Source: Nemertoderma westbladi (lineage: Eukaryota > Animalia > Xenacoelomorpha). Taken from it: 64,000 nucleotides of DNA. Below the pieces are notes generated by a model. It was not told the origin of the DNA. It saw only the letters and a list, made by a program, of their open reading frames with translations, and made no database searches. This document shows, piece by piece, positions 22,401 through 46,400 of the stretch (position 1 is the first letter of the stretch; every line of letters starts with the position of its first letter). Both the position numbers and the translations under genes were made by a program. The stretch is from NCBI GenBank assembly GCA_032718475.1, contig JAUCBJ010005969.1:16116-80115 (forward strand), in the 5' to 3' direction.

Positions 22401-25400
22401 CGACCTTCATCTCATACCGACCTTCGTCTCATCCCGACCATCGTTTCATCCAGACCTTAGTCTCATCCCGACCTTCGTCTCATCCTGACCTTCGTCTCAT
22501 CCCGATCTTCGTCTCTTCCCGACCTTCGTCTGATCCCGACCTTCGTCTCTTCCCGACCTTCATATCATACCGACCTTCGTCTCATCCCGACCTTCGTCTC
22601 ATCCGGACCTTCGTCTCATCCCGACCTTCGTCTCATCACGACCTTCGTCTCATCCGGACCTTCGTCTCATCCCGATCTTCGTCTCATCCCGACCTTCGTC
22701 TCATCACGACCTTCGTCTCATCCGGACCCTCGTCTCATCCCGACCTTCATCTCATACCGACCTTCGTCTCATCCCGACCATCGTTTCATCCAGACCTTAG
22801 TCTCATCCCGACCTTCGTCTCATCCTGACCTTCGTCTCATCCCGATCTTCGTCTCTTCCCGATCTTCGTCTGATCCCGACCTTCGTCTCTTCCCGACCTT
22901 CATATCATACCGACCTTCGTCTCATCCCGACCTTCGTCTCATCCGGACCTTCGTCTCATCCCGACCTTCGTCTCATCACGACCTTCATCTCATACCGACC
23001 TTCGTCTCATCCCGACCTTCATCTCATACCGACCATCGTCTCATCCCGAGCTTCGTCTCATCCCGACCTTCATCTAATCCCGACCTTCATATCATACCGA
23101 CTATCCCGACCTTCGTCTCATCCCGACCTTCGTTTCATCCGGACCTTCGTCTCATCCCGACCTTCGCCTCATCCCGACCTTCGTCTCACCCCGACCTTCG
23201 TCTCATCCCGACCTTCGTTTCATCCGGACCTTCGTCTCATCCCGACATTCGTCTCATCCTGACCTTCGTCTCATCCGGACCTTCGTCTCATCCCGACCTT
23301 CGTCTCATCCCGACCTTCGTCTCATCCAGACCTTTGTCTCATCCCGACCTTCGTCTCATCCCACCTTCATCTCATCCCGACCTTAGTCGAATCCCAACCT
23401 TCGTCTCATCCGGACCTTCGTCTCTTCCCGACCGTCGTCTCATCCGGACCTTCGTCTCATCCCGACCTTCGTCTCATCCCGACCTTCGTCTCAACCCGAC
23501 CTTCGTCTCATCCCAACCTTCGTCTCACCCCACCCTTCGTCTCATCCCGACCTTCGTCTCATCCGGACTTTCGTATCATCACGACCTACGTCTCATCCCG
23601 ACCTTCGTCTCATTCCGACCTTCGTCTCATGAATATGCCTCGCACAGTTTACAAGTGAAGACTTATCTGTATACCTGAATATACCTACCTATGGTGGGTT
23701 GGAAGATGGTAATTTTAAAATATGGAAATATGGATGTAAATGTGGATTGTGGGGAGTTGGAAAGTGGATGGGAATGTGGGAAAGTGGGTGGGAATGTGAC
23801 AGGTTGACAATTGTAGGGTAATGTTGGAAGTTGTGGGAAGGTGAATGGGAATGCTGGGAAGATTGGTTGGAATTAATTGAGTTGAACGTGGGGCGTATTC
23901 ATAATTATACCCGGACAAATTAAGTTTAATTCATTAATTAGGGTCAATCACCGGTACATGTATGTATGTGCTTTGTATGTGCTATTTACCTGCTTACCGT
24001 TATCTCTGAAATATTATATTTGTGCCAGTTTGATTTTCCACGGCCCATGTGAAGAATACCAGACTTTCTGCCGTTATATTTCACTTTGCAGTTACCCCCA
24101 TGTGAAGAATACCAGGTTTTCACCAAAACCACAGGTTACAGAAGGGCTGAATCTAACCAAAACAATAAACGAATTAGTATATGTACAGGTTATAAGACAG
24201 AAATAAGCGCTATAAAACACTTAATAAAGATAAATTAAAAAAAAAATAAAAAATCTTCATATATAAAATTCCAATAAAAAGTCGACCGAAAAGTGAAATC
24301 CTGGTATTCTTCACATGTGCGTTTTCCACTATTCTATGAATAGGAAATTATTTTAACCAATTTTTAAATAATGCTTTATATTTTACTCTTTTAATTAATT
24401 AATAAACCGCTGAAGATGCCCGGGAGGTTGAAATGTGCGGTGTAATAAACCTTTTTATACAGCCACGCGGTGAATGACTCTTACTTTAACTTAATTTATC
24501 AGGGAAGATTGGTGGGAATGTGGGAAGATGGATGACATTTTAAGGAAATTTTACCTCGTGTTGCAAGATTATACAGGTAAGTTACAGTGTCAGGTGAATG
24601 GAACATCAATAAACGATATCGTCTTTAACAATTGAAGGAAAGGGGCAGGTTGCAGAGGCGCCGGTTTTTTTACCCAAATAATAAATATTTCGTTAAAAAT
24701 AGAGGGAATGGCACAGATATTAAATAGACGGGGTTTTATAACCAAATCATTCAAAGCAATATTCCATGTTGCTATTTAACAATAGTAGGATAGGAGCAGT
24801 TTTCAGAGGTGGCCTTGTTTAACGGTATCCAGCAAGTCCATACGACTACGAAGCGTATGTGAGCCATGTAGTGGCGTAATCATATCACAAAATTTCCACC
24901 TTCCCACTTTCCAATCCATTTTACCACATTCCAATCTTCCTACATTCCCATTTTTCCTTTTCTTAGAAGAAGATTCTAGAACTAGGTTGCAACTTCATTA
25001 GTGTTGGTATTATCATTTCCAAACCAGATTTAACAGCATTATGAACTTGTAATCCGTGTACCAGGAGTAAGTCGATCATCGCTTACCATGCGACATCCCC
25101 TATCTAGTCCCCGCCGCGTCATCAAAGTCATGTCACATCAACTAATAAACTTGATTGAAAATAAATAATGCATAGACTCTTGAGATTCAGCTTATTACCT
25201 AAATATAAACCAGCTAAAAGGAATTATTCAGTAATTCGGTATTTTTATAGCAACCTGCTCTAAAGCAGCTGTCAGCCAGGTATTTACACATGCGGATAAA
25301 ATAACTGAATGTCTGGGAAACTGGTGTTGTACCAAATACCATCCTTCTGAGACATTGCCCCCTTGCCCCAGACTCGACTCCTAAATAGACTGCAACTGAA

Positions 25401-28400
25401 GCTCTCCCTGGCGTCTGTGCTCTACATGGCTGCCATATACATATAAAATCCATATAGGCCTACACGACTTTCTACATGGAAAATATTCTACTCTAAATAG
25501 ATAAATGGATATAGTACTCAACCATTATAATTCTCATATCAGATTAAAGTTGTCTTTATATAGAAATACTGTTAAAAAGTGAAATAATTGATTGAACGCT
25601 CTGATTAAAGTTTCTTGTCATATTCATTCTTAGTTTTTAATTTATTTTTTTTTTAGTAATACGTCGGAGAACGTAGTAGTACGTTATTGGTAGTGGTTTT
25701 ATTTTTTTCTGTTTTAAGTGATTCAGCGTTTGATGGAAGAACTTTCTGGCTATTAATTCAACACCACTCCATCAGCACTCTACACTACATAATGGAATAA
25801 TAACATTTGGAGTCGCCTTACTTTTACTTTTCGTTTATGCTCACTCTTGGTTATACCACCATCAATTTGCTCGATGTTGTTGAAAGTATTATTTTTTAGG
25901 CGAAAACAGTAAAATGTGACTCTAATTCATTTATTTTTATCATAAAATGATTCTTGGTGCCCCGGTATAACTATTTCCAACTGAAACTGTACCGTTTATT
26001 GTACAATGAAAACTCAATTAATGTCTGTTCTTTTTTTCAAATTGCGTAAACCGCGATTATTTTTCAGGGATATTCTTAATTTTTCTTTTAAAAATTAACT
26101 ATCTCAGCTTTTTAGCATATTTTTACTAAATGGATAATTAACAGACAGTAAAGTAGTAAGTAGTATGTTACCGGTACATAACTTTCAAATTATTTAGCTC
26201 TTTTTCAATTTGTTAAATTTCACCTCAGACAGTCAAGATTTAAAAATAGAGCGGAAGAAAATAGATATCAAATAACAAATATCAATAAATGACATTTTGC
26301 TGGTGGTATTACAGTTGAAGAGCATTCATTGTATGTGTAACTTAACTTGTTATTTGTATCGCTTACAAGTTGGTCGTAATGACATCGCCTTCTGAGGCCC
26401 ATGGTGGTTCTAGGCGATCGCCAAGGTCTGGATCCATCCGTAAGATGTGTAAGTTACGATATCCAACTACTACTATACTATCGGCATGCTGCATTACAGC
26501 TGCGTTATATATATATATTACATATATATTAAGAGTGCTGTATGGCTGCTTGTCGACAAATTGCGCCGCCACATCTCCATCACACATGAAAGGCGGTCAC
26601 GAGCTGTCCACCATACTTATTCACTCCATGATGCCCCCAAAGCACACGATTATGTACTGGTTGATCCTCACTACGAAAGCAATGTCCTACAAAGCGGATG
26701 CGGCTCCTTTCAAGTGTCAAGCTAAAGGAGACCAGTGAAACATCTCCATGTTGTATAAAGTCTGATTGGAGATGTGTTCATTGTACTTGACACAATGAAC
26801 CCGGCGCAGCATTCTTGTATAAACGAACCTTTCGAAACTTTCCAAGATTCGGTTTTATTCTATGGGACTTACAAATCCTGTCATAATTTTTGTCTTTTTG
26901 GAGCACTCAAAAAGAGCAACACTAGAAGCAACCTGCTCCAATAAGCTGAAGAGCCTTTGGGCTCCCTCTAGTGATTCTCCGTATCCATAAGTCATCAGCA
27001 AAGTCTAGATCAGTAAGGTACTTTGCTGGATTTCCTCTACATCTTGTGCCAGTAGGGGGTGTTGCCAACACTCCATCTTGATTAAGATTGTTTAAGGAAA
27101 TGAGTAGAAAATAAAATAATCAACCACAATTATGAGTAAGAATGGTGCAAGAGTGACTGAGTGAAGACCTCGAATGGATATCGATATCAAAGATCAAGGT
27201 TGATCTTAAGTTGACCCAAATCAAAATATGGGTTAATCAGTAGTTTAACTAGGTTTTTACCAAGATCAAGGTTGATCAATAGTTTAATTTGTCCTTCACC
27301 AAGATCAGTATTGATCAGTAGTTTATGTTGGCCTTCACCATTTATCTATACTCAGCTTGCTGTATTGCAGCTGAATATAACACCACCCAACTCCCCCCCC
27401 CCCCCCCCCATCACTCATAAATTTCACGAGATATCCACAACTACAATGCCAGTGTCCTTTATGAGGCATCTCAAGAAAGTCATGGGCTGGCCACCCCATG
27501 CTTACAGTATTATCTCCATGAGGCCAGCAGTAGTGGGTTGGTCATCACTGCAAAAGCAGTTCCCTGCCAAATTCAGGGTTGATCAGAAGTAGAAGTCGGT
27601 CTTCATAAATATTTTTGCATCAATTAGTAAGTTAGCGTAGTAAAGTTAACAATAAGTACGTGGGTTAAATGTGCAGAACGTTTATTGAGATAAATCTCCC
27701 TATACATAATAAATATAATCTATTTTTCAGATCGTTTTTGTCACAACAGATTTATTTATTTTTCAGCTGGAGATCAGAGCATGGTGGGCGCGGAGGCCCC
27801 AACTTTCCTGGAGCCAATCAAGAAGGTTTACACGACCGATGGAGGCAAGGCTACGTTCGAGGCTGTCGCGGTAGGGAAGCCCCAGCCACAGATAGCCTGG
27901 TACCGTCAGAGCACCCTGATACAGCCGTCGCACGAGTTCGTCATGACTCAGGAGGGAAACAGGTCAGTTAAACGAGACGCTGATTTTTACAAGAACCGGT
28001 AACAACTTGAAAAGTTCTAGAAAATGCCAAATATGAATATGAACAATTATTGTATATACATTATTACTTATCCTGAAATTAAGTTAATATATCGTAATAC
28101 AATTGTACATATACACCCATCTTTTATGGTGGTGAAAGTGGTTCACAATATGGGTGTCTTTATACACACACACACTCAGTGATGTTCAACTTTTTTTTGG
28201 GTGACTAGTTAACTAAATAGTTAAACTAAATCGAGAAACACAGTTTAACTAATAGTTAACTAAAATTTCAACTATTTTGAATATGCATAGTTAACTAATT
28301 AACTAAAAAGATTCAAAAACGATTTCCAAGTAAAAAGATTTAACTTCAAAAAAAGGTTTAGTGGCTGCTTAGCAGTACTGAAACAAGCCGTTCCGTACAG

Positions 28401-31400
28401 AAATATTTATCCAAAAAAAGCGGGAAATATAAATTCAACGGAATCAACAATCAAAGTCGAACAATCAAACTATCACACAATTTAGTTAAAATTTTAGTTG
28501 AAATTTCAACTAAATTATATAAAAAACCACACTAACTAATAAATTTTGGTGCACTAGTTAACAATACTCCAACTAACTAAATATGCTCAAATACCAGTTT
28601 AACTATAGTTGAACATCACTGCACAGACTTACAGGTGCAGAAGTGCAATATTCTAAGTTCGTATCTTGATAAACTGCATATAAATGAGTTTTGTTGGTTA
28701 ATAATATATCCAAATGGCATTGTTTTATATTTTAGGGCAACATTTACCATTAAAGATGCGTTTCCTGAGGATAGCGGTCAGTACACCTGTGTTGCTAAGA
28801 ACGTCGCCGGGACTACATCCTGCACATCTGAGTTAATAGTCGAAGAAAAATCATCAACACAAAAGTAAGTAATTTTTCAAAAAATTTTAATTAATTAAAA
28901 ATTTAAGAATTACCGCGTCATTTTATCTACTAACGTTGTAGCGTTAAATCGAGTTTCTGTTTCCAGGACAACGAGTGCAATGCCCAATTATCATAGCAAT
29001 CATTGTCATAATTTTTTGGTCTAATCAATCATAACACAACATGTCTTTCGGGTTGTTGGAGGTGTCAACTCACTGCCAATTTTTATCGTGGTTTTATAAT
29101 TAATTTAATTGGTGTTTGTATATTCTCGTAGAAGCACAAAAGAAGAAGATGGAGGAATTAAACCAACCTTTCAACAGTTCCCTAAACCAATACAAATTAA
29201 GGAAGGGGAGCCTTTACATATAGAAGCTCGTTTATTGGCCAATCCTCGGCCTAGAATTCTCTGGCATAAGGACGGGGGTATGATTGAAGAAGGTGAGTTA
29301 TTCATCCCAGTTAATAGTCAAATAGCTGATAGGTTAGACCATCACACGTTGTCTGCGTTTAAGTAATTGCAAGGCAGCCTTTACTGTTTGTGCTGCAGAA
29401 CTTAAAATCTTTTATAGTCACACGCCTCGGCCCATTATTAACAAACATAACAGAACCGTGATTGGCGCAAGTTTATCGTGCTGCTTCCCAGAGTTTAGTT
29501 ATATCCTCGATCCACCATCGCTTGTTCTTCTCCCTTTGGATCTGTACTATCCTTTCGCTAACATTAGCTTAATGAGAAATCCCTTCTGGTTTAGCGAAAC
29601 CTACTGAAGCTGTTATCTGATTGCATGCAATGTCTGGGACGCAAAATAATTCATTTTCATGTTAAATTTGTTTTACTATTAGTATTAACAGCTTGTCATT
29701 AAATCAAATTTAATTAATTAACTTTCTATAATAGACTAATTTCAACAATCGCCATTTCCAGTAAGTGTAATACCAATACAATCATACTATCATGGGACCC
29801 GAGCGAGAAAGTTTCTGGACTAGGCCTACTGTACTATCTATTTAACTTTATAACTAACTTTTGAAACCCAATTTGTAAATGATTTTTTTTATTTACTTTA
29901 GATGAAAGAATAAAAATTAAACAAGAAAACACCAAAAATGACAACGTGATTACCTTAGATAAAGATAAGACTGTAACTGATGACAGTGGGACTTACAAGA
30001 TTGTAGCACGCAACAAAGAAGGGGAATCCAGTACTACTGTATCAGTTAAAGTTTGTAAGTACCAATCATATTTATTTACTAGGCCTACTCCTACATGGAT
30101 TGCAGATTATATAACTGTATGGCAAAATAAATTATATCATTAAAATATGATTCTTAACACTTACTAACTAAAAGTATCATTCCAACATTATTTGTCAAGT
30201 CTATTCACTTGATGCCTATTTGTTAATTAGTTTTCAAAGCTCTATTGTGACGGGATCTACGGATCCCGGTTTATCCGTTGGGTTTTCTATCCACGCGTCC
30301 CCGCCGTGTGTGAAAGGTAAAAGAGTTCTGATGTTGGGTAATATGTATAAAGGTATAATAGTCTGACAGTTGATATAGTATAGTATGACACAACAGGTAA
30401 TATATAATGGCGGTAGCGGACGGTGACAGAAGTCCCCGTTCCACCCTACTGATCTGACTGAGTAAACTGAATGAATGATTACAGGTTACTGGTTATATTG
30501 CACGGTGGCCTTATTGCTACTCAATCGATGCCTTTCCCCCCTCTGATTGGTTGATACCCCTGTTGGCACCCTTTGGAGTGTTTCCCTTCACTCCCTGTGT
30601 TCTCTCTCGGTTAGGGGTTTGGCCCCTGACCCTTATTGTGTGTGTCTCCTTTGGGGCCTATTGTCCCCGTTTACTGGGCTGACACGAGGTTGATTGGTAA
30701 TCAACCTCGTGCTCCCAATATTGCTTTATGGCTCACTCTATGGGTTTGTGTTAGCGGAATTGGATAAGCTAACACTCCCCCCCATGCTATCTTCCCGGTA
30801 AGAAGATAGCATCCAACTAAAGTGCGCTACAATTCCGCTGGAACTCGATCTATTATCGGGTCTGGGGTGGGGTTATTTTCTTGGAGTCGGCTTTCCAGGC
30901 CGCTCCCTATGGGTATGATGTCACTACCCTCTGGCGTCTCGTGTCGGGCCGATCGTGCGCTTCTCTCACACAATTTTTGTTTCCCCAACACTCTCGCCAC
31001 TCTAACTTCGCTCTCTAACTCAACTCGCTCTCTCCCCACTCTTACACTCTCCCCACACCTGAATCGCACTCTAACTTCTCGCCAACAGCTCTTCTCACTA
31101 TCTCCTCTCTACTCTCTGCCACTCCCTAAGGCCCTAATCTCTAATGCTACCCCTGTGCTATCATACTATCTACCTTATCTAACTTACTAACTCTAACTAT
31201 CTAACTCTACTAACTACTAACTCTACTCTCTGCTAAGTCTACTAACTCTTACCAACTCTTCTACTACGTGGCGCTTAGGGTGCCCACAACCCTCTGCTAC
31301 TACCTCCATCTACGTGGCGCTTGCGGTGCCCACAACCACTCTACTACTAACTCTAACTAAAAACCCTCTAACTTTCTGCTAACTCTATCTACGTGGCGCT

Positions 31401-34400
31401 AACGGTGCCCACAACCACAACCGGTACTACGTACCCTCTTACTAACTCTTTTCTCCATCTACGTGGCGCTAACGGTGCCCACAACCACAACCGGTACTAT
31501 GTACCCTCTTACTAACTCTACCTCCATCTACGTGGCGCTAACGGTGCCCACAACCACAACTGGTACTACGTACCCTCTTACTAACTCTACCTCCATCTAC
31601 ATGGCGCTAACGGTGCCCACAACCACTCTACTATCTACCCTCTACTACTCTACTACCTGGCACCCTATGTGCCCTCTCTACTACTCTACTCTCTGGCACC
31701 CTATGTGCCCTCTCTACTACCTCTAACACTACTACCTGGCACCCTATGTGCCCTCTCTACTACCTCTAACACTCTAACTACATCTCCACCTCAACTAATA
31801 CCTCTATCTACGTGGCGCTTGCGGTGCCCACAACCACTCCCTGCTACTACTTTCTACGTGGCGCTTCCGGTGCCCACAACCACTCTCTCCTACTACTTTC
31901 TACGTGGCGCTTCCGGTGCCCACGACCCCCCTTACTACTCGTGGCATGACAATATGCCAGACTCCCTTACCCCGCCGCCTTCTAACCTACTCTCCTTCTA
32001 CGTGGCGCTTACGGTGCCCACAACCCCACTACTACTACTCGTGGCATGACAATATGCCACACTCCCTTGCCCCGCCGCCTTCTAACTCTACTCTCCTATC
32101 TTCGTACTACCTCTTACTTCTACTAACTATTATTTTTAATTATTTAATTATTTATTATTATTTATTTTATTTTTAATTAAATAATTAATTTCTTGTGGGA
32201 AGGGCGTCTCGCCCTCATTCCCACCCCCCTCAGTCCAAATATTGGACGACTAAACTCTAAGCTGCCCCTCGATCTTCCATCGATTCTTCCATGAGGCACT
32301 GTCCCGCTGTCCCCCTGCGCGTCCTCTTATCTTTCCACCCACTTTCCTCGCCAATTCCAACTCATCTGGAATTGGCTCTCCCCCTTTCACCACCCCAAAA
32401 TCGGGTCTCTCCACCGCCTTCTTAACTATGTCCTCTCTTGGCATCAAAATGCCATCTCTTTCTTTGTTGTCTCCCGCCGGCAGAATGAATAGAAAGTGAA
32501 AGAACAGGCAGAACAGTAGTCCTATTCCTTTCCATCCTGCCTTCCTTCTCGACTTCCCCCTTGTCGGTATGCCTCCAAACCGGACCTGTGTCTCTTCCGG
32601 ACACTCCTCTGGACACTCCCCCGGAGTGTTGTCCTCCGGACACCTCGCCGTCCGCTCCGCTCCATCTCCATACCGATGCTTGCTGGGAAACCTACTCTCC
32701 TCTGCCCACTTTCTTACCGTCACCTCCCTATTTGGCTCTACTATCTCCTGTTTCTCCTCTTCGTCCACTGCGCCTGCGGTGCCTGGCATCATGCACCCAT
32801 GGTAACATGTTGTTACTGATCGACCGCCCTCTCCTGATATCTTCACTGGCACTACCCCGAGTAGTACTTTTCTCTTCTCTTCTGTCGTGCTTGTAGCTGC
32901 TGTATCTCTACACTCTCCGGATCTGTGTCCTTCTACCACACATCGATGACATAGTCCGTTTGCGTCTGTGTAGGCTATACGATCTTGTTTGGGCAACGCT
33001 TGCCAGTGCTTACAACTCCTGGTCTTATGTGTTCCGTCCCGGTGTAATTGACATTCGAATCCTGGGTTATAGCGTTCCCTGTATAGTCCCTCACGTATCG
33101 CGCCTAGGTTTATATGTACCGATTTAGTGTTTTGGTTGTCTGTATTCGGCCTACTGGGTACATTGGGATTATGTTTATTTATGGTGTTATTTTCTTTCTG
33201 TCCCCGCCATGGTGTGGCCCTGCTACCAGCTAACTGTGGACTAGCAGTCCCCTGTGTGGCCGCATGTGGTAGTGATTGTCCTACTCTCGGGAGTGGATCT
33301 GCAGGATCGTGTTCGGGTTTATGGCTTGTCCCCAAACTATCCTCGCTATAGACTGGGTCTGTTATTAATTCGGCTTCATAGTTGAGGAAGCTCGACATTT
33401 CTTCTAGGCCCGGTTCCGCACCTTTCTTCTCACGTGTGGAGAAAGCGATTTTCCTCCACTTCCTTCGTAACCAGACCGGCAGTGCCTGCGCTATCGTGGT
33501 GATGTTGTTAGACGCGTTGAGTTCGTATGGTGCGTCTAGCGTCTTTAACACGATTAACGCCTTCTCGACCTTGTTTGCAAAGGTCCTTATGCTAACGGGA
33601 TTGTCCTGTAGGCCATCCGATGTTATGCCTCTCAGGGTTTGCCGGATGATCTTGGCCGGGTGCCCGTATTCCCTATCTAGCGCCCGCCATGCTGTCGTGA
33701 AGCCGCCCTCGATGCCCTGGTATTGCCTCACGATGTCGTATGCTGGGCCTCCTGTATATACTTGCAGATATTTTAGGCACTCCGCCTGCGTCAAGTTCTT
33801 ACTTAATATTTCGTTACTATACATGCGCCGAAACTGTAGATATTCTTCCGGCCTGCTCCCATCGAATTTAAATGGTTCCACAGGTGGTAACTCGATCCTA
33901 GTTTTTAACGCATCGATCAATGTGGCCATTCCCATCGCTTGCGCTTCTAATGGGTTTGATGGATGTTGTATAGTTTCTCCTGTTGGGTGCGGTCCGTCCG
34001 TCCTATTTGTTGACTTTTGCGTCGGATATATCATTGGGGGTAACGGCCCCCTCCATATTTCCGTGTCGCATGATCTGCTCTCGTCCAAGGGGTTCGATGT
34101 TCTCGCTCCTATTGGGGTATATTGTTGATATTGTGATGGGGGAATGTCACCCTGTCCCCCTCCCACCGGTATGTTTGGTACTGGGGTTGATGTTAATATA
34201 TTGGGGCCCATACATCTATCTGCAATAATTCCCCCCTCCCCTGGATATATGTTATGTCCCTGTGTATTATAGTCATGCTGCTGTACCGATATAGGCCTAC
34301 CTACCTCTCGCCTACCTACCGGTATGTACTCCGCGACTTCCGGGTTTAATCCCGTTGTTCGCGCTACCCTATCGCCTACTCTATCTCTCCCAGCATGGCC

Positions 34401-37400
34401 TATAATAGTATGTGCAGTAAGGCCTACAGTATGTCCTGCAGTCTGCATGTGCCCTTCCGAACCGAAGTTTATTCTTCGCGAATCGCGAATCTCCCCGCGA
34501 CTACCGTACTCTCGATCGGCAGCTATATCACGTCGGGAAGTTTCCCTTCGATCCCCTATCCTGCTCTCGTCTTCGTATCGGTACGTCCTGTACCCCTCTC
34601 CTGGTGTGCGGTGCGTTTCTCCGGGGCGACGGCAATCTCCCGAAGTTCGACCCCACTGACTCCCTAACTCCATCTCTACTAGCGACGGCTCGCTATCCGT
34701 CCTCGCTCTCCGGTTGCTCCTAGCAACGACTCTTCTATTATCTTCCTTTCTTCTCTCTTCGACCTCTCGGTTAAACTCTGCTAATCTTCTTCTATCTTCG
34801 ACCTCTCTATTATACTCTACTAATCTTCACCTATCTTCGACCTCTCTATTAAACTCTACTAATCTTCTCTCTTCTAACTGGGCTCGACGTTCCGTCGCCC
34901 GCCCTCTCGCGACGTCAACCTGTCTCTCTCTGCTCGATCGCACGCCGCTGGGGATACTCGCAATCCCCCTATTACTCTCCGTCGCCGGGTGTTGCGGTTT
35001 ACCTAATTCGGCCCGCGCATTATCCGCTGACGCCTGTGGGACACTCCCTGCCCCCCCTCTGTCGCTACTAATCCCTCGCGGTGGGGTGCCCGTAGCCCCC
35101 CCCCCACCCGCCACTTCTAACTTCGCTATCTCTTACTACACTTCTGCGTCCCTCTTGTCGGACACTCTCTACCCCCTTTCTCTCGCCACTAATCTTCTGT
35201 GGTGGGGCGCCCGTAGCCCCCCCCCCCACCCGCCACTTCTAACTTCAATATCTCTTACTTCGTCTCTACACCCCTCTCTAGTCGACACACTGTCTCTACT
35301 GCGGCCGGGTCTATTCACCCCCGCCTCTCTCTCTACTACTGCGTGACCTACCAGGCCCACCTCGGGTTGGCTCAACCGCGCCACTTCCTGCCTACTAACT
35401 ACGTGGCCTACCAGGCCGCCGTCGGGTTGGCGCAACCCTGCCACTTCCTGCCTACTAACTACGTGGCCTACCAGGCCGCCGTCGGGTTGGCGCAACCCTG
35501 CCACTTCCTGCCTACTAACTACGTGGCCTACCAGGCCGCCGTCGGGTTGGCGCAACCCCGCCACTTCCTGCCTACTAACTACTACGTGGCCTACCAGGCC
35601 GCCGTCTGCCGGGCTATACACGTCTGACGCGTTCATATTAATAGCACCATTCCCAATATTATTTGTTAAATCAATTAAATTATTAGAATTTGAAACGGGA
35701 TTATTATTTAAATTATTTAAGTTAGAATTATTATTATTTTCAAAATTTAAATTGCTATTCGAATTATTTGAATTATTTTGATTATTCTGAATATTTGAAT
35801 TAATATTATTATTTGAATTTAAACTTAAATTACTACTACCGGGTAAAATATTTCCTGTAATAAAGGGATTAGGGTTATTTACTACGGTACTATTAATACA
35901 AACATTTCCTAACGTACTACTACTACCCCCCTCGCCCGTACGGTTGCTGTACGTACTGTAAGTGTACCGCACGCTCTGTTCTCTTGCCTCACGCTCTTCG
36001 CGTTCACTCTCTTGCTCCTTCCCTCTCCCCATTATCCGGTCTAATTCTTTCACCCTTAATTTATATGCCAGGCGTTCACTCTCTCGCACCCGTCTTTCTT
36101 TTGCGGAGGATGTAGCAGACTTATCGGTTGCGACGGACTTCCGCCGCCCCTCCGTCCTACTAACTTTCCCCCGTTTTCCGGGGTCCTCGCTGACCGACGA
36201 GACCGAATCCTCGGAGCTAACCTCGGATTCGCCCTCGTGCGGTCCCGCCCAACCCACTAACTTAACTTCCCTGGCATCGACTAAGTATGGCCCTATGTAC
36301 ACTACACCAGGCCCCATACCCCTACGTTCCCATAGCCCAAACAGTTCGAAGGCAACCCCTCTCGCTCTCTCCTCGGCCAGTTCTCCCTGCCCAGAACGCA
36401 CTAGGTAATCAAAGTATCTGTTCGACTCACCTAGTCGTCTCCTCAACTTCACCTGGTCTATCTCAGCCCCTCCTCTAGCTTCCTTCAGTTGTTCCCGGGT
36501 CGCGGCGTAGGCTCGTCGAAGTCGATCAGAAACCCCGACATCCTCGTCGCCGACCTCTCCTCTCTCCCTCCGGGTTCGGCGTCGTACCGTCGGCTCCACC
36601 GTTGCCGTTCCGGTGGGCCGTTCGTCGCCCTCGGTCTGTGGCTGACCGGCGACATCGGCATATCGACCGCCGCCCTGTGTCGACTCGTCTCTCTCCTCCC
36701 CCGTCTCGCTCTCTCCTCTACTCGACTCGCTCTCTCGCTGTAGACGACCCCCCACATCTTGGTTCGCCAGGTTGCTCGTTATCGACGTGGCGTCAACCGG
36801 CGTCGACGTGGTCGGCGTAGCATCGACTGGCGTCGTGGGTTCGTATCGTCTCGCCGTGGCCTCGCGGATCGTTAGATCGTCGTCCGGGGTCCGCGGCGGT
36901 GTCGTTCCTTTCTCTCGACTCATCTCGCCTTTGGTAGCTGGCAGCCACAGTCTGTCAGTTGGTTAGATCTAGTTCTATCACTGTCAGACTGTTAGGGCAG
37001 CTGCTAGGATTCTATCTCTGTCAGGGCAGCTGGGCGGATCTAGTTCTGTCACTGTGACGGGATCTACGGATCCCGGTTTATCCGTTGGGTTTTCTATCCA
37101 CGCGTCCCCGCCGTGTGTGAAAGGTAAAAGAGTTCTGATGTTGGGTAATATGTATAAAGGTATAATAGTCTGACAGTTGATATAGTATAGTATGACACAA
37201 CAGGTAATATATAATGGCGGTAGCGGACGGTGACAGAAGTCCCCGTTCCACCCTACTGATCTGACTGAGTAAACTGAATGAATGATTACAGGTTACTGGT
37301 TATATTGCACGGTGGCCTTATTGCTACTCAATCGATGCCTTTCCCCCCTCTGATTGGTTGATACCCCTGTTGGCACCCTTTGGAGTGTTTCCCTTCACTC

Positions 37401-40400
37401 CCTGTGTTCTCTCTCGGTTAGGGGTTTGGCCCCTGACCCTTATTGTGTGTGTCTCCTTTGGGGCCTATTGTCCCCGTTTACTGGGCTGACACGAGGTTGA
37501 TTGGTAATCAACCTCGTGCTCCCAATATTGCTTTATGGCTCACTCTATGGGTTTGTGTTAGCGGGATTGGATAAGCTAACATCTATCTCCAAGTGAATGT
37601 TATAATTATAATATAATTTATTGAAATAAAAATCAATCCTAAAAATGTATATATATTTGCGACGATACACAAGTCACATTGTCACAGCAAAGAACGTATT
37701 ATGCCTTAGGCGCGTTCACACTACCGAGTCAAAGTCAAAGTCAAAATAAAATAAATATAGCTAGCTAGCAATAATAAATAATAATACATTATATAGGCCT
37801 AATATAATACATAATGGCGTTCTAGAAAAAAATTAATTTCTTGTTATTTTTTTTACTAATTTTTTTGACTTTGACTCGGTAGTGTGAACGCGACTTTACA
37901 GTGATACACTTCAGTCATCAAAATTGATAACGGGAAGTTAGGAGGCGTTCATGATATAATGTTTATCATGTCAATTTTCCGAGTTTTCAATTCACGAGTT
38001 TCTGTTCACAAACTGTCGTAGTTTATTGTCGTACTCTTGTCTGTTTTTCTTTATTGTCGCAAAATGTTCAACAATTACTGTCATTTTCAATTGCAGTACC
38101 TATGGAAACTAAAGAGTCTCCCGTTGATGCACCTACAGAATCAACTCCAGTCAAGGAAATGGTAAGTTTTCCGCATAATATATTACATAGTTTTTAACGA
38201 CGGCAACTTTAAACGAACATTGTGAGTTTATCAATAGGCTGATACATATTTAGCTTACATGTGTACATATTATGTGGCCGTTGCGTTAGAAGAGGGCGAA
38301 TTCAGCGAGGCTCGTGAGGATCTCGCTGCTCTGGAGAAGGATTACGAGGAGGTTGGGGTTGATAGTGGTGGAGCCGAAGATGAGGAGGGAGATGAGGAAT
38401 ATTAGATGTCACTTTACAAACTCTATTCATTCAGCCGTCACTACTAGAAATATGCAACTCTTGGGTGTTTATATTAATTTTAATTCCTTTTATAATAATT
38501 TAATAGAATAAATGGTTATTTATTTTATAAGTTGGTTGGCAACAAAAAAAAAAAAATTTAACTTCCATATTCCGTTCAACATTTCTCTAATGTAAGTTAT
38601 TTCTAAATTCTGGTTCCTTTTTGGTAATAATATATAGCATTCTTATAACTTTGTCTTACAGGAACCCGGGCCGCCAAAGTTTATAAAGAAACTCAAAGAT
38701 ATGGAGACCTGGAGAGACCAGACCGTAAAATTAGAGGCCGTTGTTACTGGAGGTCCTAAACCTGACTTCAATTGGTTTAAAGACGGCAGAAAAATATATC
38801 CAGGTACTCTACAGCGTTTTAACATCGGTGATCACCATTTTTTGGAAGTCGTATTAGAAAATTTAATATAGTAGACACACTAAAGATATCATTACATAAT
38901 ATGACAAAGTTCACAACCTCTTGTTAAGCACTTGAGATATAGCCTATCACACGTCGTGAAATAATATTTCATTTGAGGTCTTATCAAACATCAAATAGGA
39001 CATTCAAATATTAAAGCTGGCATATTTTTACTCGTGCTGCAATCATGTAAAGTGCAACTTTACACGCCATAATAATCAATCAGTGATTGAAAACCCTGAT
39101 GTTACTTTAATGCTATATGAGACATGAGTTGTTTATTATGTTTTTAGGAAGAAATGCAGAAACTGGTAGTGACGACCAGGGCAACGTTTGGTTAATTCTC
39201 CCATCTGTTAGTAAGAGGGAAGCTGGCAAATATATGTTGAAAGCAAAAAATAGACACGGTGAAGCTGAAAGCGAATGCGAAATATCTCTTAATGAATGTA
39301 AGTAGAACCAAAATATTTATAACCAAATAGAATAAGGGTATTTTTGTTGCTGATAGGCCTATTTATATAGGAATCAATCACCTAAACCCGTGGTCCATGC
39401 AATTTCAGGCCATTTTTTTCAGAAATTCAGTAAAAAATTAGACCCTAAAGACTTAGGGTTGTGTTAGGGTCAACAACCTGCTAGTCACTGACTCATGTAC
39501 CGGTAGGTGTGCAGCCTGTGGTACTGTATTTATTACAGAATATTGGTGCCATACAAATTTTTTTTAATTACGATTCAGTAGACCTTCTCCTTCCGTTTAA
39601 AGGAATTATTTGCAAACTTTATCTTTTACGATTTTAGCGCCGGCGAAGATCGTTGAGAAACCGGACGCGGTGGCAATCAAGAAGGGAGAAACGGCAACGA
39701 TACGACTAATTATTAGCGGCCTACCGACGCCAACCGCCGAGTGGCAAAAGGACGGCAAAAAACTATCTGACATGCCGGATAAGTTAGTTTATTGCCTTTA
39801 TTGACTTTTTAATATAGAAGATAAGAGTTAAAACTAGTTCTGATATGCTTCAACATTTTATTTATTTTATATTATATTAATATTACTGTATAACACGTGT
39901 TAAAAACAATTACCATCACATTAAACTCAAATTCATAGTAAAATATAACAAAAGCACGTGGAGGGAACCACCCAGACAGTAGAGCACTTACGGGGGCTAC
40001 AATTATTGTGTCAAATAAATATATTATCGAAACAAATTATTATATTTTCATATTATTACCAAAACCCAGCACTACCCTGCAGGCACTAGAGTTTAACAGG
40101 AACTGCCATCCTTCTGCACCTTCTTGTTCTATGGCAGCTCACGGGCGAGCAGTAACGTGGTTGTCAGGCATTGCCATTCATGAAACGTTTGCTAAAAGGA
40201 CACTGAAGTCATTGATAACTTAGATAAATAGGGAATTTACCATGGCTGACGCGAACTTGGAGGTGTTATGTTGCGGTGCCTGGCCGATGTATGTATGTAT
40301 GTGTGTACGTATGTAGTAACACTGTAACATTAATATTTACAAAAAAGTGTTGGTATGCTAATAATTATTGTGAAGGTGGAAGCACACTTTACATAGCAAC

Positions 40401-43400
40401 TATAATATTATATGATTCAGAGACAGGATTTACTAAATAAATAAATGAAATAGAAATACAATAAAATTAGATATTAAAAAAAATTAAAACTTGGAAAATT
40501 AAGAAATTAACATATAACAAGGTGAGGCCCCAGCTCATATTTTTACATTATATATTTTTGGTAGGGCCTTTAGGGCACAGTGCATTATTTATTTATATGT
40601 AGTGTTTGTTTCGGTGCGGTTTGTTGTTTTTGCTGTTGTCCAATATGGTTTGTTGTGATAAGTCGCATAGCGGCTAGGGGCCAAAGCCCCGGACATTAAA
40701 GATTTACGTAACTTAACTTTTATATCCAACGAATTGTTAAGTAATTTTTGTGCCGATATGCGCTGCTAATGTAATGAAATAAATAATGATGAATTTGCTT
40801 CTCATTAGGTATGCGATAGAAACCTTGGAGAATTCCACAACGGCAGTGATACGTTCAGCTGGGGTGGAGGACCAAGGTCGTTATCGGGTTACTGTTCGTA
40901 ATCCCTCGGGGAGAGATAATTGTAACTTCACGGTGGCGGTGAAAGATGTCCCAGACGCCCCATCGCGACCAAAGGCCACCAGTGTTACACAATCGTCGGC
41001 TGTGTTGAGTTGGACGGCTCCTAGAAAGGATGGAGGAAGTGCAGTCACGCAGTGAGTTACAGTTTAGGCCTACTGTATATACTGTATATACATTGGGTAC
41101 AATGTTGTGGCAGAGGCTTTATCAGACTGTATGTATATCTGTCTGTCTGTCTGCTTGCCTGTCTGTCTGTCTGGCTGTCTATCTGTTTGGATGCCTGTCT
41201 GTATGTATTTATGTCTATCTGTCTGTCTGACTCTCTGTATGCATGTATTGTATGACTGTCTGATCATTGTATATCTGTATTTTTATCTGTCGGATTGACT
41301 GTCTCTGACTGCTTGTCTGTCGTCTGTCGGTATATCTGTCTATCTATCTGTATGTTTATCTGTCTGGCAGTCTTGCTATCTGTCTGCCTGACTATCCCTC
41401 CTTCTGTCGGTATATCTGTCTGTCTATATGTTTGCCTATCTGTCTGTATGTCCGTATGTCAACAAAAGTAAGGAAGCATACTGCTAACTAATTTAGCAGT
41501 ATTTTGTACTAGTTTTAACAGTACTTTGTACTAGTTTTAGCAGTACTTTGTACTAGTTTTAGCAGTACTTTGTACTAGTTTTAGCAGTACTTTGTACTAG
41601 TTTTAGCAGTACTTTGTACTAGTTTTAGCAGTACTTTGTACTAGTTTTAGCAGTACTTTGTACTACAGTAGTTTTAGCAGTACTTTGTACTAGTTTTAGC
41701 AGTACTTTGTACTAGTTTTAGCAGTACTTTGTACTAGTTTTAGCAGTACTTTGTACTAGTTTTAGCTACTAATTTGAATTTTGAAGTAACTATTTTGTAT
41801 GTCTGTGACTTTAACTATAATATGCATAATTTTAGTGCTAAATAGGATACCAAATATTATCGATATGTTTTAGATACACGTTACAACGCAAAGCAGCAGA
41901 CGACGCTAACTGGTTTACTGTATCCAGTAACGTCACCGACGTACAGTGCAAGGTTGACGACTTGCAACCCAATACAACTTACAGTTTCAGAGTTTTAGCT
42001 GAGAACGAAGTCGGACTAAGTACACCGGGACTCGAAGTTTCAGCCAAAACTATACGTAAGTCTTAAACATTGTAATCAACTTATACTAAGGCTGTAAAGG
42101 GTAACTAAGGTTGGGTGTAAACGCTACGCCGACAACCGACTGTCGACAACCACTGCCGACAACAGTAGAGTTAAAAATGTAACCTGAGTTCGTGACTCTC
42201 GTTTATTGTTTTGGTTAGAATAACTTCCACTGTAACCTGTACCTTTCCTTCAATTAATAAATGAGATTAATTAGCTTTAATAATGGTTGTCGGCGTTGGT
42301 TGTCGGTAGTCGGTTGTCGGCGTAGCGTTTTACACCCACCAAGGTTGTATTTAAGGTTCTTCATGGCCATATAATGATAGCCTATAATGCTATAATCATT
42401 TCAGCGAGATACCCATGAAACTAAATAAAAATGAAACCAAAAATTGACATATTTCAGAGGCTACGAAAGTAGAAAGAAAATCTGTTGTGATGGAGAAACC
42501 GAAAGTAGTTGAACCGCTAGTGGACAAACAACATAAAGAAAACGAGACTGCAGTACTGCAGTGCGTTGTTACTGGGTTACCATTACCAACTATAAGCTGG
42601 TTGAAGGTTAGTAGTGCAGTTCATAAAAAAACCACGGAATGATAGCACTAAAAACGATATTTAGTAAAAGTGGTCGGAATATGATCCGAAACCATTGATG
42701 GAGGTCACGGGGTAATAAAATATTTTAACAATACTTAATTATATTTATTATCATTATCATTTTACTGGTTTCTTGCTTATTAACAAATATACTAATATTT
42801 CTTCTTTAAACTTCTTTAAGTCTTTAAAAAACGGAAGTCAACATTGCATTAATCACCACATGCAATATATACATTCAAAATAAAGTAAAATAACTTAATT
42901 AATTTAAGTTAATAAGGCAAATTAGTTTATTGTTTTGATTAGATAAACTGTCACTTTAAACCTGCTCTTTTCTCCTAATAACCCCTAATTTATTAAAAAC
43001 ATGAATCCCGGAGTTTTACCCCCCCCCCCCCCCCCCCCCCCTCCCCCTATCCTTACTCCCGAATACCCGAATCGACTCTCATTAATAGTACCTTGATCGT
43101 CGTGTTACAGGACGACGAACCAATCCACGGCGAATGGCGGTATAAGGATACAATGCAGGAGAAGGATGGGAACGTGGTCGCGGTACTAACGCTAGTTAAA
43201 CTCGTCCTAGACGATGAAGCTGAGTACACATGCGAGGCGATAAACGACGCGGGAAGGGTGACCTCGTGCTGTGAGGTGCTCGTAGACGAGGGAGAGGGCG
43301 GCCCAAAGAAGAAGTTTATACAAGAGGAAGTCGACGTAATTCCCCCGGTGTTTACGGAGAAACTCGCGGATACTACGGTCGGATACTCCTTGCCTACGCA

Positions 43401-46400
43401 ACTGCGGTGCAAGGTTCTGGGCCAACCCAGACCTGGGATACAATGGTACCACAACGACCGCTTGCTGAAAACCTCCAAGTACAACCCGCTGGACTTCGAA
43501 GGAGACGTTGTTACTTACACCATGATGGAGGCGTTCAGTGAGGATAACGGAGTCTACAAGTGCGTCGCTACTAACGACGCCGGTGAAGCTGAGTGCCAGG
43601 CCGAACTCATTGTCAGCGAGCTGGAAGATGAACCCGATGAAATGAAACCCGCGTTTGTCAGGAAACTTGTAGATGAGTCACTCATTAATGGTGATAACGT
43701 TGAACTGCTGTGCAAAGTGAAAGCAAAGCCGCCTGCATCTGTCACCTGGTAAGTTTCAGTAAAAACACAATCCATTAGTGAAATGGTCTAAATAGGCATA
43801 AACCGAAACCAAGTTTGTCTTAATAAACCACATTCTAATTTGTTCTTAATTTTAAAACTTTTTCATTTTAAATTAGTTTGTATTTTTAATCGCAGGACGA
43901 AAGACGGTAAGCCCATAGAATCCGGAGCGAAGTATAGCATAACAAGTGACGCCCAGGGTTGGAACTCCTTGAAAATTACAGGTGTCCATGAGGACGCCGA
44001 TTCTGGAACGTACGCTTGTAAGGCTGCCAACAAGATAGGGAAGGCTGTTGTCGAAAGCAGAGTTCGTGTGAAAGGTAAGATGTTGTACTATATTCACCAA
44101 CAATATGTAAAAAGCACATTATTTTAGCAGCATTCTTAAAAATGCAGCTGTAATGCAGCATGCCGATCCTAGTAGTACTAGGATCGGCATGCTGTATTAC
44201 AGCTGCATTTTTAAGAATGCTCTGCCGGCTTGTCGACAAAATTGCGCCGCCACAACTCCGTATCACCCCTGAAATTTGCTAGATCATCCGCATCTTCAAG
44301 GCCAGTGTCCTTTAAGATGCGTCTCAAGAATGTCATGGGCTGTCCACCATGCTTATTCACTCCATGAGGCTGCCAATGTACAAGATTATGCACTGGCTGG
44401 TCCTCACGGCGAAAACAATGTCCTGCAAAGCGGAGGCGAATTTGTTCTAGTGTCAAGCTTGGGGGAACCACTGAGACACCTCCAATGTTATATAGTGTCT
44501 GGTTGGAGATGTGTGCATTGTACTTGACACAATGAACCCGGCGTAGCATTCTTGTGAATGTGCCATCCAGAGATTTGGTGTCCTCAGCAGTTAGAGCCCA
44601 GCATGGACTCCCATAGAGGAGTACTGGAACTACTGCTGCTCTAAATAATCGGACCTTAAGTTTCCGATTAATTCTCGGTGACTTCCAAATACTGGAAAGC
44701 CTATTCAAGGCTGCCCATGCCTTTCCCTTACGTATTCGAAGGTCCTCACCTGACTTCCGGATCCATGATCCCAGGTAACAGAAGTCGTCCACATGCTCAA
44801 GCATACCATCCTTTGAGCTTATGCTCATCCGGTCAGAGACTTGCTGAGGACTTTCAAAGTGAACTGTCAAAATTTTGGTCTTTCTGGAGTTAATAAAAAG
44901 ACCAACACTAGAAGCAGCATGTTCTAATGAGCTGAGGAGCCGTTAGGCTCCCTCTAGTGATTCTGAGAGTACTCCTAAGTCATCAGCAAAGTCTAGATCA
45001 GTTAGGTACTTGGCAGGATTTCCTCGACTTCTGGAGCCAGTAGGTGGAGTTATCATCACCCCATCATCATTATGATGATCTAAGGACATGCGTAGAACAT
45101 AGTCAACCACAATTATGAACAAGAATGGTGCAAGTGTATCTCCATGGGGGACGCCCCATAACACTTCAAATGGTTCTGTGTCACCGTCAACAGTAGACAT
45201 AAATGTTGTCGAACCATCGTATACTGATCTGATTGCTGCAATAATTTCATCAGGAATCCCATATAATGAAAGTATGCTGAACATACGTGAGCGAGAGACT
45301 GAATCATAGGCCTTGAAGAAGTCAGCAAAGATAACAGCCAGATGCCTGTCTTTCATTTTTGATAACTCTTCAATTATCCTTCTAAGTGCCAAAATGAGCT
45401 TCATGGTCCCACGACCTTTACGGAACCCATTCTGATTTCCACGGAGCCGTCTCTCAATGGGATCCCTGATGCGATTTAATAGAATTCTATTGTATAGCTT
45501 TGCAGCAATCGAGATCAATGAGATTCCCCGAAAAGAACCATAGAGTGTTAGGTTGCCCTTCTTGGGAACTGGCACCAACTTATTTGTTTTCATTTCTTGT
45601 GGGACTCTTGTTGTTCGGTACATGTCTACTATGATGGGATATATGATCTTTAAACACTCAGGTATTTTAAAGACCTCAGGGGGGAACACCATCTACTCCA
45701 CTGGCACGATTGGTCTTAATGCTCTTTGCAGCAGCCTTCACTTCTGCAAAGGAGGTATCGCCAATGGGATTATCTGGGAGTAAAGACTCAGACACTTTTA
45801 CTTCTATAAAGTTATCAGGCAATACCCTGTCATTATTGAGGAGCTTTTCAAAGTGGGCCTTCCAACCATTGAGGCGATCGGCTGGTGAAAAAGCCTTATC
45901 CTTCCTTGGTGGTTGGTTGGCTTTTCCGCCCAGTAAGCAAGTTGATCGATTTCCATGCCTGGGATGATTGCCTGCTGTCGTCAGCATCATTGATGGCATC
46001 AACCTGTTGGTTTATTAGCCCCCTACTTCATAGATAAGAGCCAAGAGAGAGAGGAGCCGTCGGGTTGCCTCCGGTGGTTAGTATCTCACTCGTTCATCGA
46101 TCACTTTACTTTACTAATAATGTTGGCTGAAAAAACACAATGTTTGTTGAATCATACAGTTTCAGTCAAAATTTACTTGAATCGAATTAAACGAATCTTT
46201 AACCGAGAATATATCGTAACTATGTGTGCCCTCTTTAGACGCCTCATCTAACCTGAACACTGTGGCACCTGGACGAAAACGTGAAAGAAGGAAAAAGGAG
46301 AAAAAACGCGTTAAAAACATCAAACAGGTTCTCACAGCACCAACTCCAGCCCGATTCATTGAAAAACCAGTTCCTGTTTCCGCCACTGAAGGTAGGTAGA

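Follow-up and report, generated by a model that had tools for sequence, protein, structure and literature searches.

A gag-only BEL/Pao retrotransposon of Nemertoderma westbladi with a primer-binding site complementary to its own LTR: evidence for probable self-priming

Features of the window and its two BEL/Pao elements

The window, that is, the whole 64,000-nt stretch of Nemertoderma westbladi DNA that was analysed, contains two LTR retrotransposons on the minus strand, referred to as element 1 and element 2, together with genes and other repeats. A single-ORF DEAD/H helicase similar to the RIG-I/Dicer helicases of marine invertebrates lies beside ORFs with dsRNA-type C2H2 zinc fingers (53131-55215 and 56400-58916, minus strand). 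Zinc fingers of this type are fused to the helicase in homologues, and the best matches of the helicase, which come from hemichordates, a brachiopod, and molluscs, reach at most 39% over most of its length. Tandem arrays occupy 16392-23630, 49566-52287, and 1-1136, with units of 17, 31, and 34 bp in 425, 88, and 33 copies, respectively. An Ig I-set ORF and LINE-type reverse transcriptase (RT) fragments are found at 42997-43752 (plus strand), 44211-45692 (minus strand), and 26596-27524, and inverted-repeat elements are found at 14643-15094, 42112-42338, and 60330-60771. A search against Rfam returned two sub-threshold microRNA matches, which are taken as chance.

Element 2 spans 30246-37581 on the minus strand. 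Its edges are set by two LTR copies, a 5' LTR of 529 bp with TG...CA ends (37053-37581) and a 3' LTR that differs from it at 1 of 529 bases (30246-30774), by a 5-bp target site duplication, ATAGA (5' copy at 37582-37586, 3' copy at 30241-30245), and by the polypurine tract (PPT) GGGGGGGAG directly adjoining the 3' LTR (30775-30783). This combination of paired TG...CA LTRs, target duplication, and PPT is the structure of a BEL/Pao element. The near identity of the LTRs, the intact duplication, and the PPT indicate that element 2 was recently reverse transcribed with its present primer-binding site (PBS). The internal region contains a BEL/Pao gag ORF of 858 codons (32250-34826) with a DUF1759 match (E 5e-11) and a Cys-His knuckle region, preceded by a 597-codon ORF without a Pfam match (35169-36962), which lies in the frame of the gag ORF and is separated from it by stops. 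Toward the 3' end, a purine-rich, internally repeated region at 30950-32190 of the window shows periods of 36 to 139 nt.

The Gag of element 2 found no match in a word-indexed homolog search, but a full HMMER search did find relatives, and among the 10 best-scoring relatives scanned, 5 contain Peptidase_A17 and RT. The best scores are those of eight polyproteins of alignment A2 (63 to 96 bits), whereas 14 other polyproteins matched with at most 54 bits; identity to the tested relative group is 21 to 29%. With tblastn, the same Gag matches 54 of 79 BEL/Pao loci (described below). Similarity to RT, RNase H, or integrase is absent throughout element 2, where 10 polyprotein queries matched gag alone, and because gag but no pol was found, the element is regarded as a non-autonomous BEL/Pao derivative. 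Element 2 is thus a recently inserted gag-only BEL/Pao retrotransposon. More than 40% of its sampled words are present in four or five host DNA runs from at least three studies, and 2069 contigs of run X1, 807 of X2, and 59 of X4 match 821 bases of the element. These many matching contigs point to an abundant and varied family.

Element 1 spans 2915-14637, with an LTR of 1262 bp and the target duplication ATAAT. It contains extra ORFs of 387 and 137 codons with a weak zinc knuckle before the 3' LTR (4198-5716, minus strand) and a short pol-like remnant near 7500-7670. A comparison of the LTRs of elements 1 and 2 gave no real alignment.

Complementarity between the primer-binding site and the LTR

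The minus-strand sequence of the 5' LTR of element 2 ends with ...CCGTCACA at 37053 and is abutted by GTGACAGAACT at the PBS position (37052-37042), which contains no TGG. The LTR itself contains ACTTCTGTCAC at 37240-37230, with a further copy in the 3' LTR at 30423-30433 (minus strand). The two 11-mers are complementary at 10 of 11 positions, including a perfect match of 9 nt that is anchored at the LTR edge and pairs with 37238-37230, which places the predicted 3' end of a self-primer at 37230. The match was compared with dinucleotide shuffles of the LTR, with internal start positions, and with a same-sense control. The 9-nt anchored match is reached by 3 of 5000 shuffles and the 10/11 match by 12 of 5000, and both the missing TGG and the match itself, as reported in the first-pass annotation, were reproduced. 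At least 9 nt are reached from 8 of 6248 internal start positions, and the same-sense control yields 4 nt. For the 30 nt following the LTR, the best-pairing segment is 37261-37230 (2 of 150 shuffles). With its 9 nt, element 2 is among the weakest cases, as its relatives mostly show 11 nt, and it stays below the 10-nt rule given for self-primers in plants in the available sections of PMC6317226. A chance match, or the decayed PBS of a dead element, is barely credible: the 9 nt and the missing pol would fit such an origin, but the rarity among shuffles, the near-identical LTRs with intact ends, and the same pattern, found again in 18 of 22 clusters of relatives as well as in element 1, speak against it.

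Element 1 carries a different 11-mer without TGG at its PBS position, ATAACAGTTAT (13365-13375, minus strand), and its LTR contains a site complementary to this PBS at 11 of 11 positions (14125-14135, minus strand; 8 of 5000 shuffles). Cross matches are short, with 6 nt for the PBS of element 2 in the LTR of element 1 and 4 nt for the reverse combination. The Gags of both elements point to the same BEL/Pao group, so that the self-complementarity represents a shared trait rather than two origins. Judged from their sequences, elements 1 and 2 are independent of each other and have this trait in common. The earlier suggestion that two different PBSs, each matching its own LTR, reflect covariation is borne out across families, while the notion of two independent origins is given up.

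The leader of element 2 contains further related sequences. A duplicate of the junction between LTR end and PBS lies at 36985-36967 (minus strand), with a C>T change at PBS position 5, within a 29-nt repeat of 2.2 copies; this agrees with the degenerate PBS copies noted before. A second perfect inverted match of 11 nt between LTR and leader connects 37177-37167 with 36990-36980 (minus strand) and is the longest among the 6248 internal starts, and it would be disrupted by a variant at 37174 that makes up about half the summed depth. An extended helix of 37259-37248 with 37038-37027 appeared strong at first and was rejected after it failed the nulls (p 0.10; 1484 of 3000). Family variants with other leaders (window 36903-37051) rejoin element 2 at 37038, 37044, 37050, or 37051. 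The point 37044 is the end of the 9-nt match, and variants rejoining at 37050-37051 may carry other PBSs.

Putative transcription signals precede the LTR site on the minus strand (37255-37304). The TATAA at 37304 and the Inr-like TCATT/TCAGT motifs claimed in the first-pass annotation are present at the places named; five Inr-like TCA[GT]T motifs lie at 37285, 37281, 37277, 37268, and 37259, and a CCAAT motif lies at 37357. The candidate transcription start (+1) is 37283-37275 by TATA spacing or 37257 by the spacing in relatives. A start at 37257 would lie 28 nt before the end of the site, which compares with 28 to 29 nt for the related loci L014, L021, and L022b. Taken together, the TATA and Inr-like motifs place the candidate +1 28 to 54 nt before the predicted primer end, and the LTR site would accordingly be located in R. 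No AATAAA or ATTAAA that could fix the poly(A) site is present in element 2.

Variation within the family was followed in four runs from three samples, with run depths given as the summed depth of contigs. In 37015-37310, 21 places with substitutions of at least 2% are listed, and none of them falls within 37202-37259, which contains the site and the last Inr-like motif. This invariant block lends weak support, because an empty block of 28 nt has a P of 0.08 under a uniform null. A variant at 37048, position 5 of the PBS, accounts for 20, 25, and 17% of the summed depth in X1, X2, and X3 and is missing from X4, and no compensating change is found at 37234. The variant would turn a G-C pair into G-U, or it may stem from the duplicate in the leader, where the same letter is found.

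Folding of the R-U5-PBS RNA, a check proposed with the original observation, does not support the helix. The helix pair probability for element 2 is 0.00 to 0.08 for RNAs starting at 37260-37320 and 0.00 to 0.86 for starts at 37238-37250, where it varies with the 3' cut, and it is 0.00 for element 1. A cut 28-mer from element 2 is not placed on the PBS in a co-fold. In these models, equilibrium folding does not favour the helix between PBS and LTR.

Coding relatives, covariation, and LTR introns

A query with the Gag-protease of element 1 found 23 BEL/Pao proteins, 8 of which, the same eight polyproteins that score best with the Gag of element 2, form a group 45 to 74% identical to the first. 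The alignment of these eight proteins fetched 79 coding loci from metagenomes, representing 36 clusters at 80% identity; a search for relatives among viral contigs found none. In seven LTR families, the end of the 5' LTR can be read without recourse to complementarity, through a second LTR copy (L013/15/16, the L021 group, L022b, L027/28, L059, and L006) or the end of the contig (L001). Including elements 1 and 2, none of the nine LTR ends read directly is followed by TGG within the first 6 bases. A normal TGG site in autonomous relatives would have counted against self-priming, and the proposal thus stands in this respect. Six of the seven families (five of six clusters) show a match of 11 to 13 nt to their own LTR at offset 0, reached by 0 to 2 of 400 shuffles each. 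The remaining family, L001, shows no such match. It has an extra A after the LTR end and a 6-nt match, which nevertheless sits where such matches usually do, with an Inr-like motif about 29 nt ahead of it (L001:1-31 and 178-190).

A larger test used a fixed junction motif and a distance rule, by which 50 junctions in 42 of the 79 loci (22 clusters) are testable, leaving 37 loci without a testable junction. In 18 of these 22 clusters, the PBS matches its own LTR over at least 10 nt (range, 10 to 13), with different letters. The same-sense control reaches this length in 1 of 22 clusters, and PBSs shifted by 15, 20, and 25 nt reach it in 1, 0, and 1 of 22, so that the match frequency in related coding BEL/Pao elements exceeds that of both shuffled and shifted controls, the comparison called for in the first-pass annotation. 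The test is not blind, because the junction motif was written after earlier scans of the same loci. The four misses are L002, L035/L036, L056, and L042: L002 reaches 10 nt at a junction outside the distance rule, L042 reaches 9 nt, and the contigs of L035/L036 and L056 contain little LTR. No junction was identified in L010 and its cluster. When all CA junctions are scanned blindly, single loci give little power (null median, 6 to 12 nt), though the top match often falls on the true LTR end. At L022:1-14449, two related BEL/Pao elements with the same PBS 11-mer stand in tandem, joined by a chimeric-looking LTR.

Elements 1 and 2 and 24 of the loci, chosen with their matches already known, make up a set of 26 representatives with 22 distinct PBS 11-mers. 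Across families, 44 of 640 pairs show matches of at least 9 nt, and the PBS of element 2 matches the 25 other LTRs by at most 8 nt. In 21 of the 26 representatives the LTR site is followed by G and in 5 by C, and never by T; the terminal A of the LTR therefore always stays outside the pairing. At the level of sequence, the covariation of PBS and LTR across families is real.

Such covariation shows a selected pairing and not priming as such. The pairing could be kept for packaging, dimer formation, or a translation switch, with something else acting as primer, and the unfavourable equilibrium folding and the absence of a visible cut site would agree with this. It is nevertheless an unlikely explanation, as the match starts at offset 0 and never enters the LTR end in 26 of 26 representatives, has a typical length of 11 nt, as described for Tf1 in the available part of PMC7175516, and lies at the place required of a primer, with no other primer site in view. 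No tRNA genes were found in the window or in the 37 of 79 loci scanned, and a phage search with the PBS junction gave chance matches alone.

Priming by half a tRNA, namely, the 5' part of tRNA-Asp(GUC) as far as the anticodon loop, had been raised as an alternative, and the 7-nt anchored match to this loop is real: it ends at position 39 of E. coli tRNA-Asp, which served as a proxy for that of the host. The loop and the base after it are identical in eukaryotic tRNA-Asp and in this proxy. The idea is not absurd, since the match ends in the anticodon arm, and half-tRNA priming of some copia lineages is known from the consulted portion of PMC6317226. As an account of element 2, it is highly improbable. 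The bacterial proxy offers 7 nt rather than the long match to a tRNA 5' fragment that marks half-tRNA priming, compared with 9 nt for the LTR and with -10.5 versus -12.5 kcal/mol over 11 nt; all 17 other PBSs match the E. coli proxy by at most 4 nt, and the LTR match and the covariation would be left unexplained. The Osser, Bryco, and Bianca copia lineages resemble element 2 in a PBS without TGG and differ in that the survey, as far as its accessible text goes, reports half-tRNA priming in copia only, while the PBS described here covaries with the LTR between families.

The matches of most relatives are formed in an unusual way. In five of the six matching LTR families, only 7 to 9 nt are contiguous, and the match is completed when a GT-AG intron with a pyrimidine tract is taken out; L027/28 is the sole contiguous case. 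If splicing is disallowed in the 22-cluster test, 4 clusters reach the match length, and 5 reach it with CT-AC in place of GT-AG. Among the 26 representatives, 18 are spliced, with introns of 98 to 426 nt, and 8 are contiguous. Splicing does not lengthen the match in element 2 or element 1 (0 and 6 nt), and for this reason, both are assigned to the intron-free type. L028 shows a complete LTR of 308 nt with a PPT and a contiguous site, and intron-free LTRs therefore exist among coding elements as well.

A possible spliced product is represented by L014, which differs from L021 by one gap of 168 nt exactly at the predicted LTR intron. It starts one base past the predicted +1, directly behind an Inr-like motif and 28 nt from the end of the site, and it ends 85 nt after the site; an AATAAA lies downstream of the site in the L014/L021 family. 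L014 is thus shaped like a spliced transcript and is a candidate for one. If it is a transcript, its ends place the site early in R. The 168-nt intron is missing from the 3' LTR of L014 too (L014:1-28 and 6924-7206; L021:6837-7379).

These ends also bear on the origin of a self-derived primer, which could come from an RNA other than the cut 5' end of the same molecule, such as the 3' end of a terminating transcript, a short LTR transcript, or a partner or helper RNA in the particle. The presence of the site in both LTRs, the lack of a signal fixing the poly(A) site in element 2, and its need for a helper leave room for this. Such a source is rather improbable, as L014 continues for 85 nt beyond the site, the AATAAA of L014/L021 is likewise situated downstream of it, and cutting the 3' copy would presumably remove the R needed for strand transfer.

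Proposed self-priming and comparison with known systems

The most probable reading, with a probability of roughly 0.7, is that element 2 does without a tRNA and starts reverse transcription from a 5' fragment cleaved off its own RNA, a Tf1-like self-priming in the Belpaoviridae. Here, transcription would start 28 to 54 nt upstream of 37230, and the 5' end of the RNA would pair with the PBS. By analogy with Tf1, the RNase H of a helper RT would act in trans and cut the RNA after 37230. DNA synthesis would then start from the terminal A of the LTR, copying U5 and the remaining R before the jump to the 3' R. The self-primer is probably longer, about 28 to 50 nt, and not the first 11 nt as in Tf1. 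The self-priming signature proposed in the first-pass annotation is thus supported by the relatives, while a primer consisting of the first 11 nt is improbable and an LTR intron would have to be removed in most relatives. In the L027/L028 LTR, a TATA-like motif lies about 23 nt before the 11-mer; with this spacing, the first 11 nt could serve as the primer there, as in Tf1.

In most relatives, the LTR intron would need to be spliced out to make a primer of 11 to 13 nt. Since the cut would remove all 5' template upstream of the site, the intron could survive only if the 3' LTR copy stays unspliced, and the intron-free type of elements 1 and 2 may arise when a spliced 3' LTR gets copied. A broader proposal, on which even odds can be placed, is that a BEL/Pao branch of aquatic animals abandoned tRNA priming altogether: the primer would be the capped 5' leader of the element itself, about 30 to 50 nt long, with the 11-nt pairing of most families built by host splicing of the LTR intron, so that splicing licenses replication and elements 1 and 2 represent intron-free escapees.

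In the description of the Belpaoviridae, replication is primed by a tRNA, and the 18-nt PBS corresponds to the 3' end of tRNA-Arg or tRNA-Gly (PMC8742986). Element 2 resembles this family in its DUF1759 Gag, in full-length relatives with Pao peptidase A17, RT, and integrase, in LTRs of 0.2 to 1.2 kb, in the PPT, and in the animal host, and it differs in lacking both the 18-nt tRNA PBS and pol (PMC8742986). In its PBS, element 2 departs from the textbook feature of this family.

The Tf1 lineage is where self-priming has been tested. The Tf1 RNA pairs with the PBS through its first 11 bases and is cleaved by RNase H between positions 11 and 12, according to the portion of PMC7175516 available. 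The Tf1/Tf2/Tj1, Tf1/sushi, and Tcn1 chromoviruses of the Metaviridae share with element 2 the absence of a tRNA PBS and about 11 nt after the 5' LTR that are complementary to an LTR site, as far as the accessible sections of PMC7175516, PMC4600332, and PMC6317226 describe them. Element 2 likewise shows no tRNA PBS and a PBS complementary to its own LTR. Contrary to the Tf1 group, it contains a BEL/Pao Gag and 9 anchored pairs, its site apparently lies 28 to 54 nt from the start and not in the first 11 nt, cleavage is proposed by analogy, and most of its relatives need an LTR intron removed. Membership in the Tf1/sushi lineage itself was considered and ruled out by the BEL/Pao-type Gag, which stands in place of Ty3/gypsy chromovirus proteins. 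The TAR lineage of plant Ty1/copia elements (Houba, Osr-1) offers a parallel outside the Tf1 group, with a self-primer predicted from the complementarity of PBS and LTR alone (PMC6317226, in part); it differs in being copia from plants, and the available text describes no splice-built primer.

In the available portions of PMC6317226, PMC4600332, PMC7175516, PMC3601003, PMC6934838, and PMC5443660, self-priming is named for Tf1/sushi, Tcn1, and TAR only. PMC3118150 contains no occurrence of primer, tRNA, or PBS, PMC554778 contains none of tRNA or PBS, and the accessible parts of PMC13524379 and PMC3286476 deal with tRNA PBSs of gypsy elements. In a search of the openly accessible journal literature, self-priming of BEL/Pao elements did not turn up in any paper. 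Repbase contains BEL internal entries that begin without TGG, so the trait may be mentioned there.

If the proposed self-priming is true, a further family of the Ortervirales would have evolved tRNA-free priming independently or retained it. This would bear on a question posed in the consulted part of PMC3601003, namely, whether LTR elements had tRNA priming from the beginning or acquired it late. Such elements would be beyond control by tRNA supply or tRNA fragments, and self-priming would account for their being overlooked by PBS finders that rely on tRNAs. Among the relatives, splice-built primers would tie replication to host splicing. Element 2 is the young, abundant, intron-free, and non-autonomous case, in which the cis signal is nearly all that selection must keep.

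Both elements show an odd palindrome with a one-base centre at the PBS. In element 2, the LTR end and PBS read GTCAC-A-GTGAC (37058-37047, minus strand), and in element 1, the PBS is itself palindromic, ATAAC-A-GTTAT (13375-13365, minus strand). These sequences are too tight for a hairpin and could pair between two RNAs.
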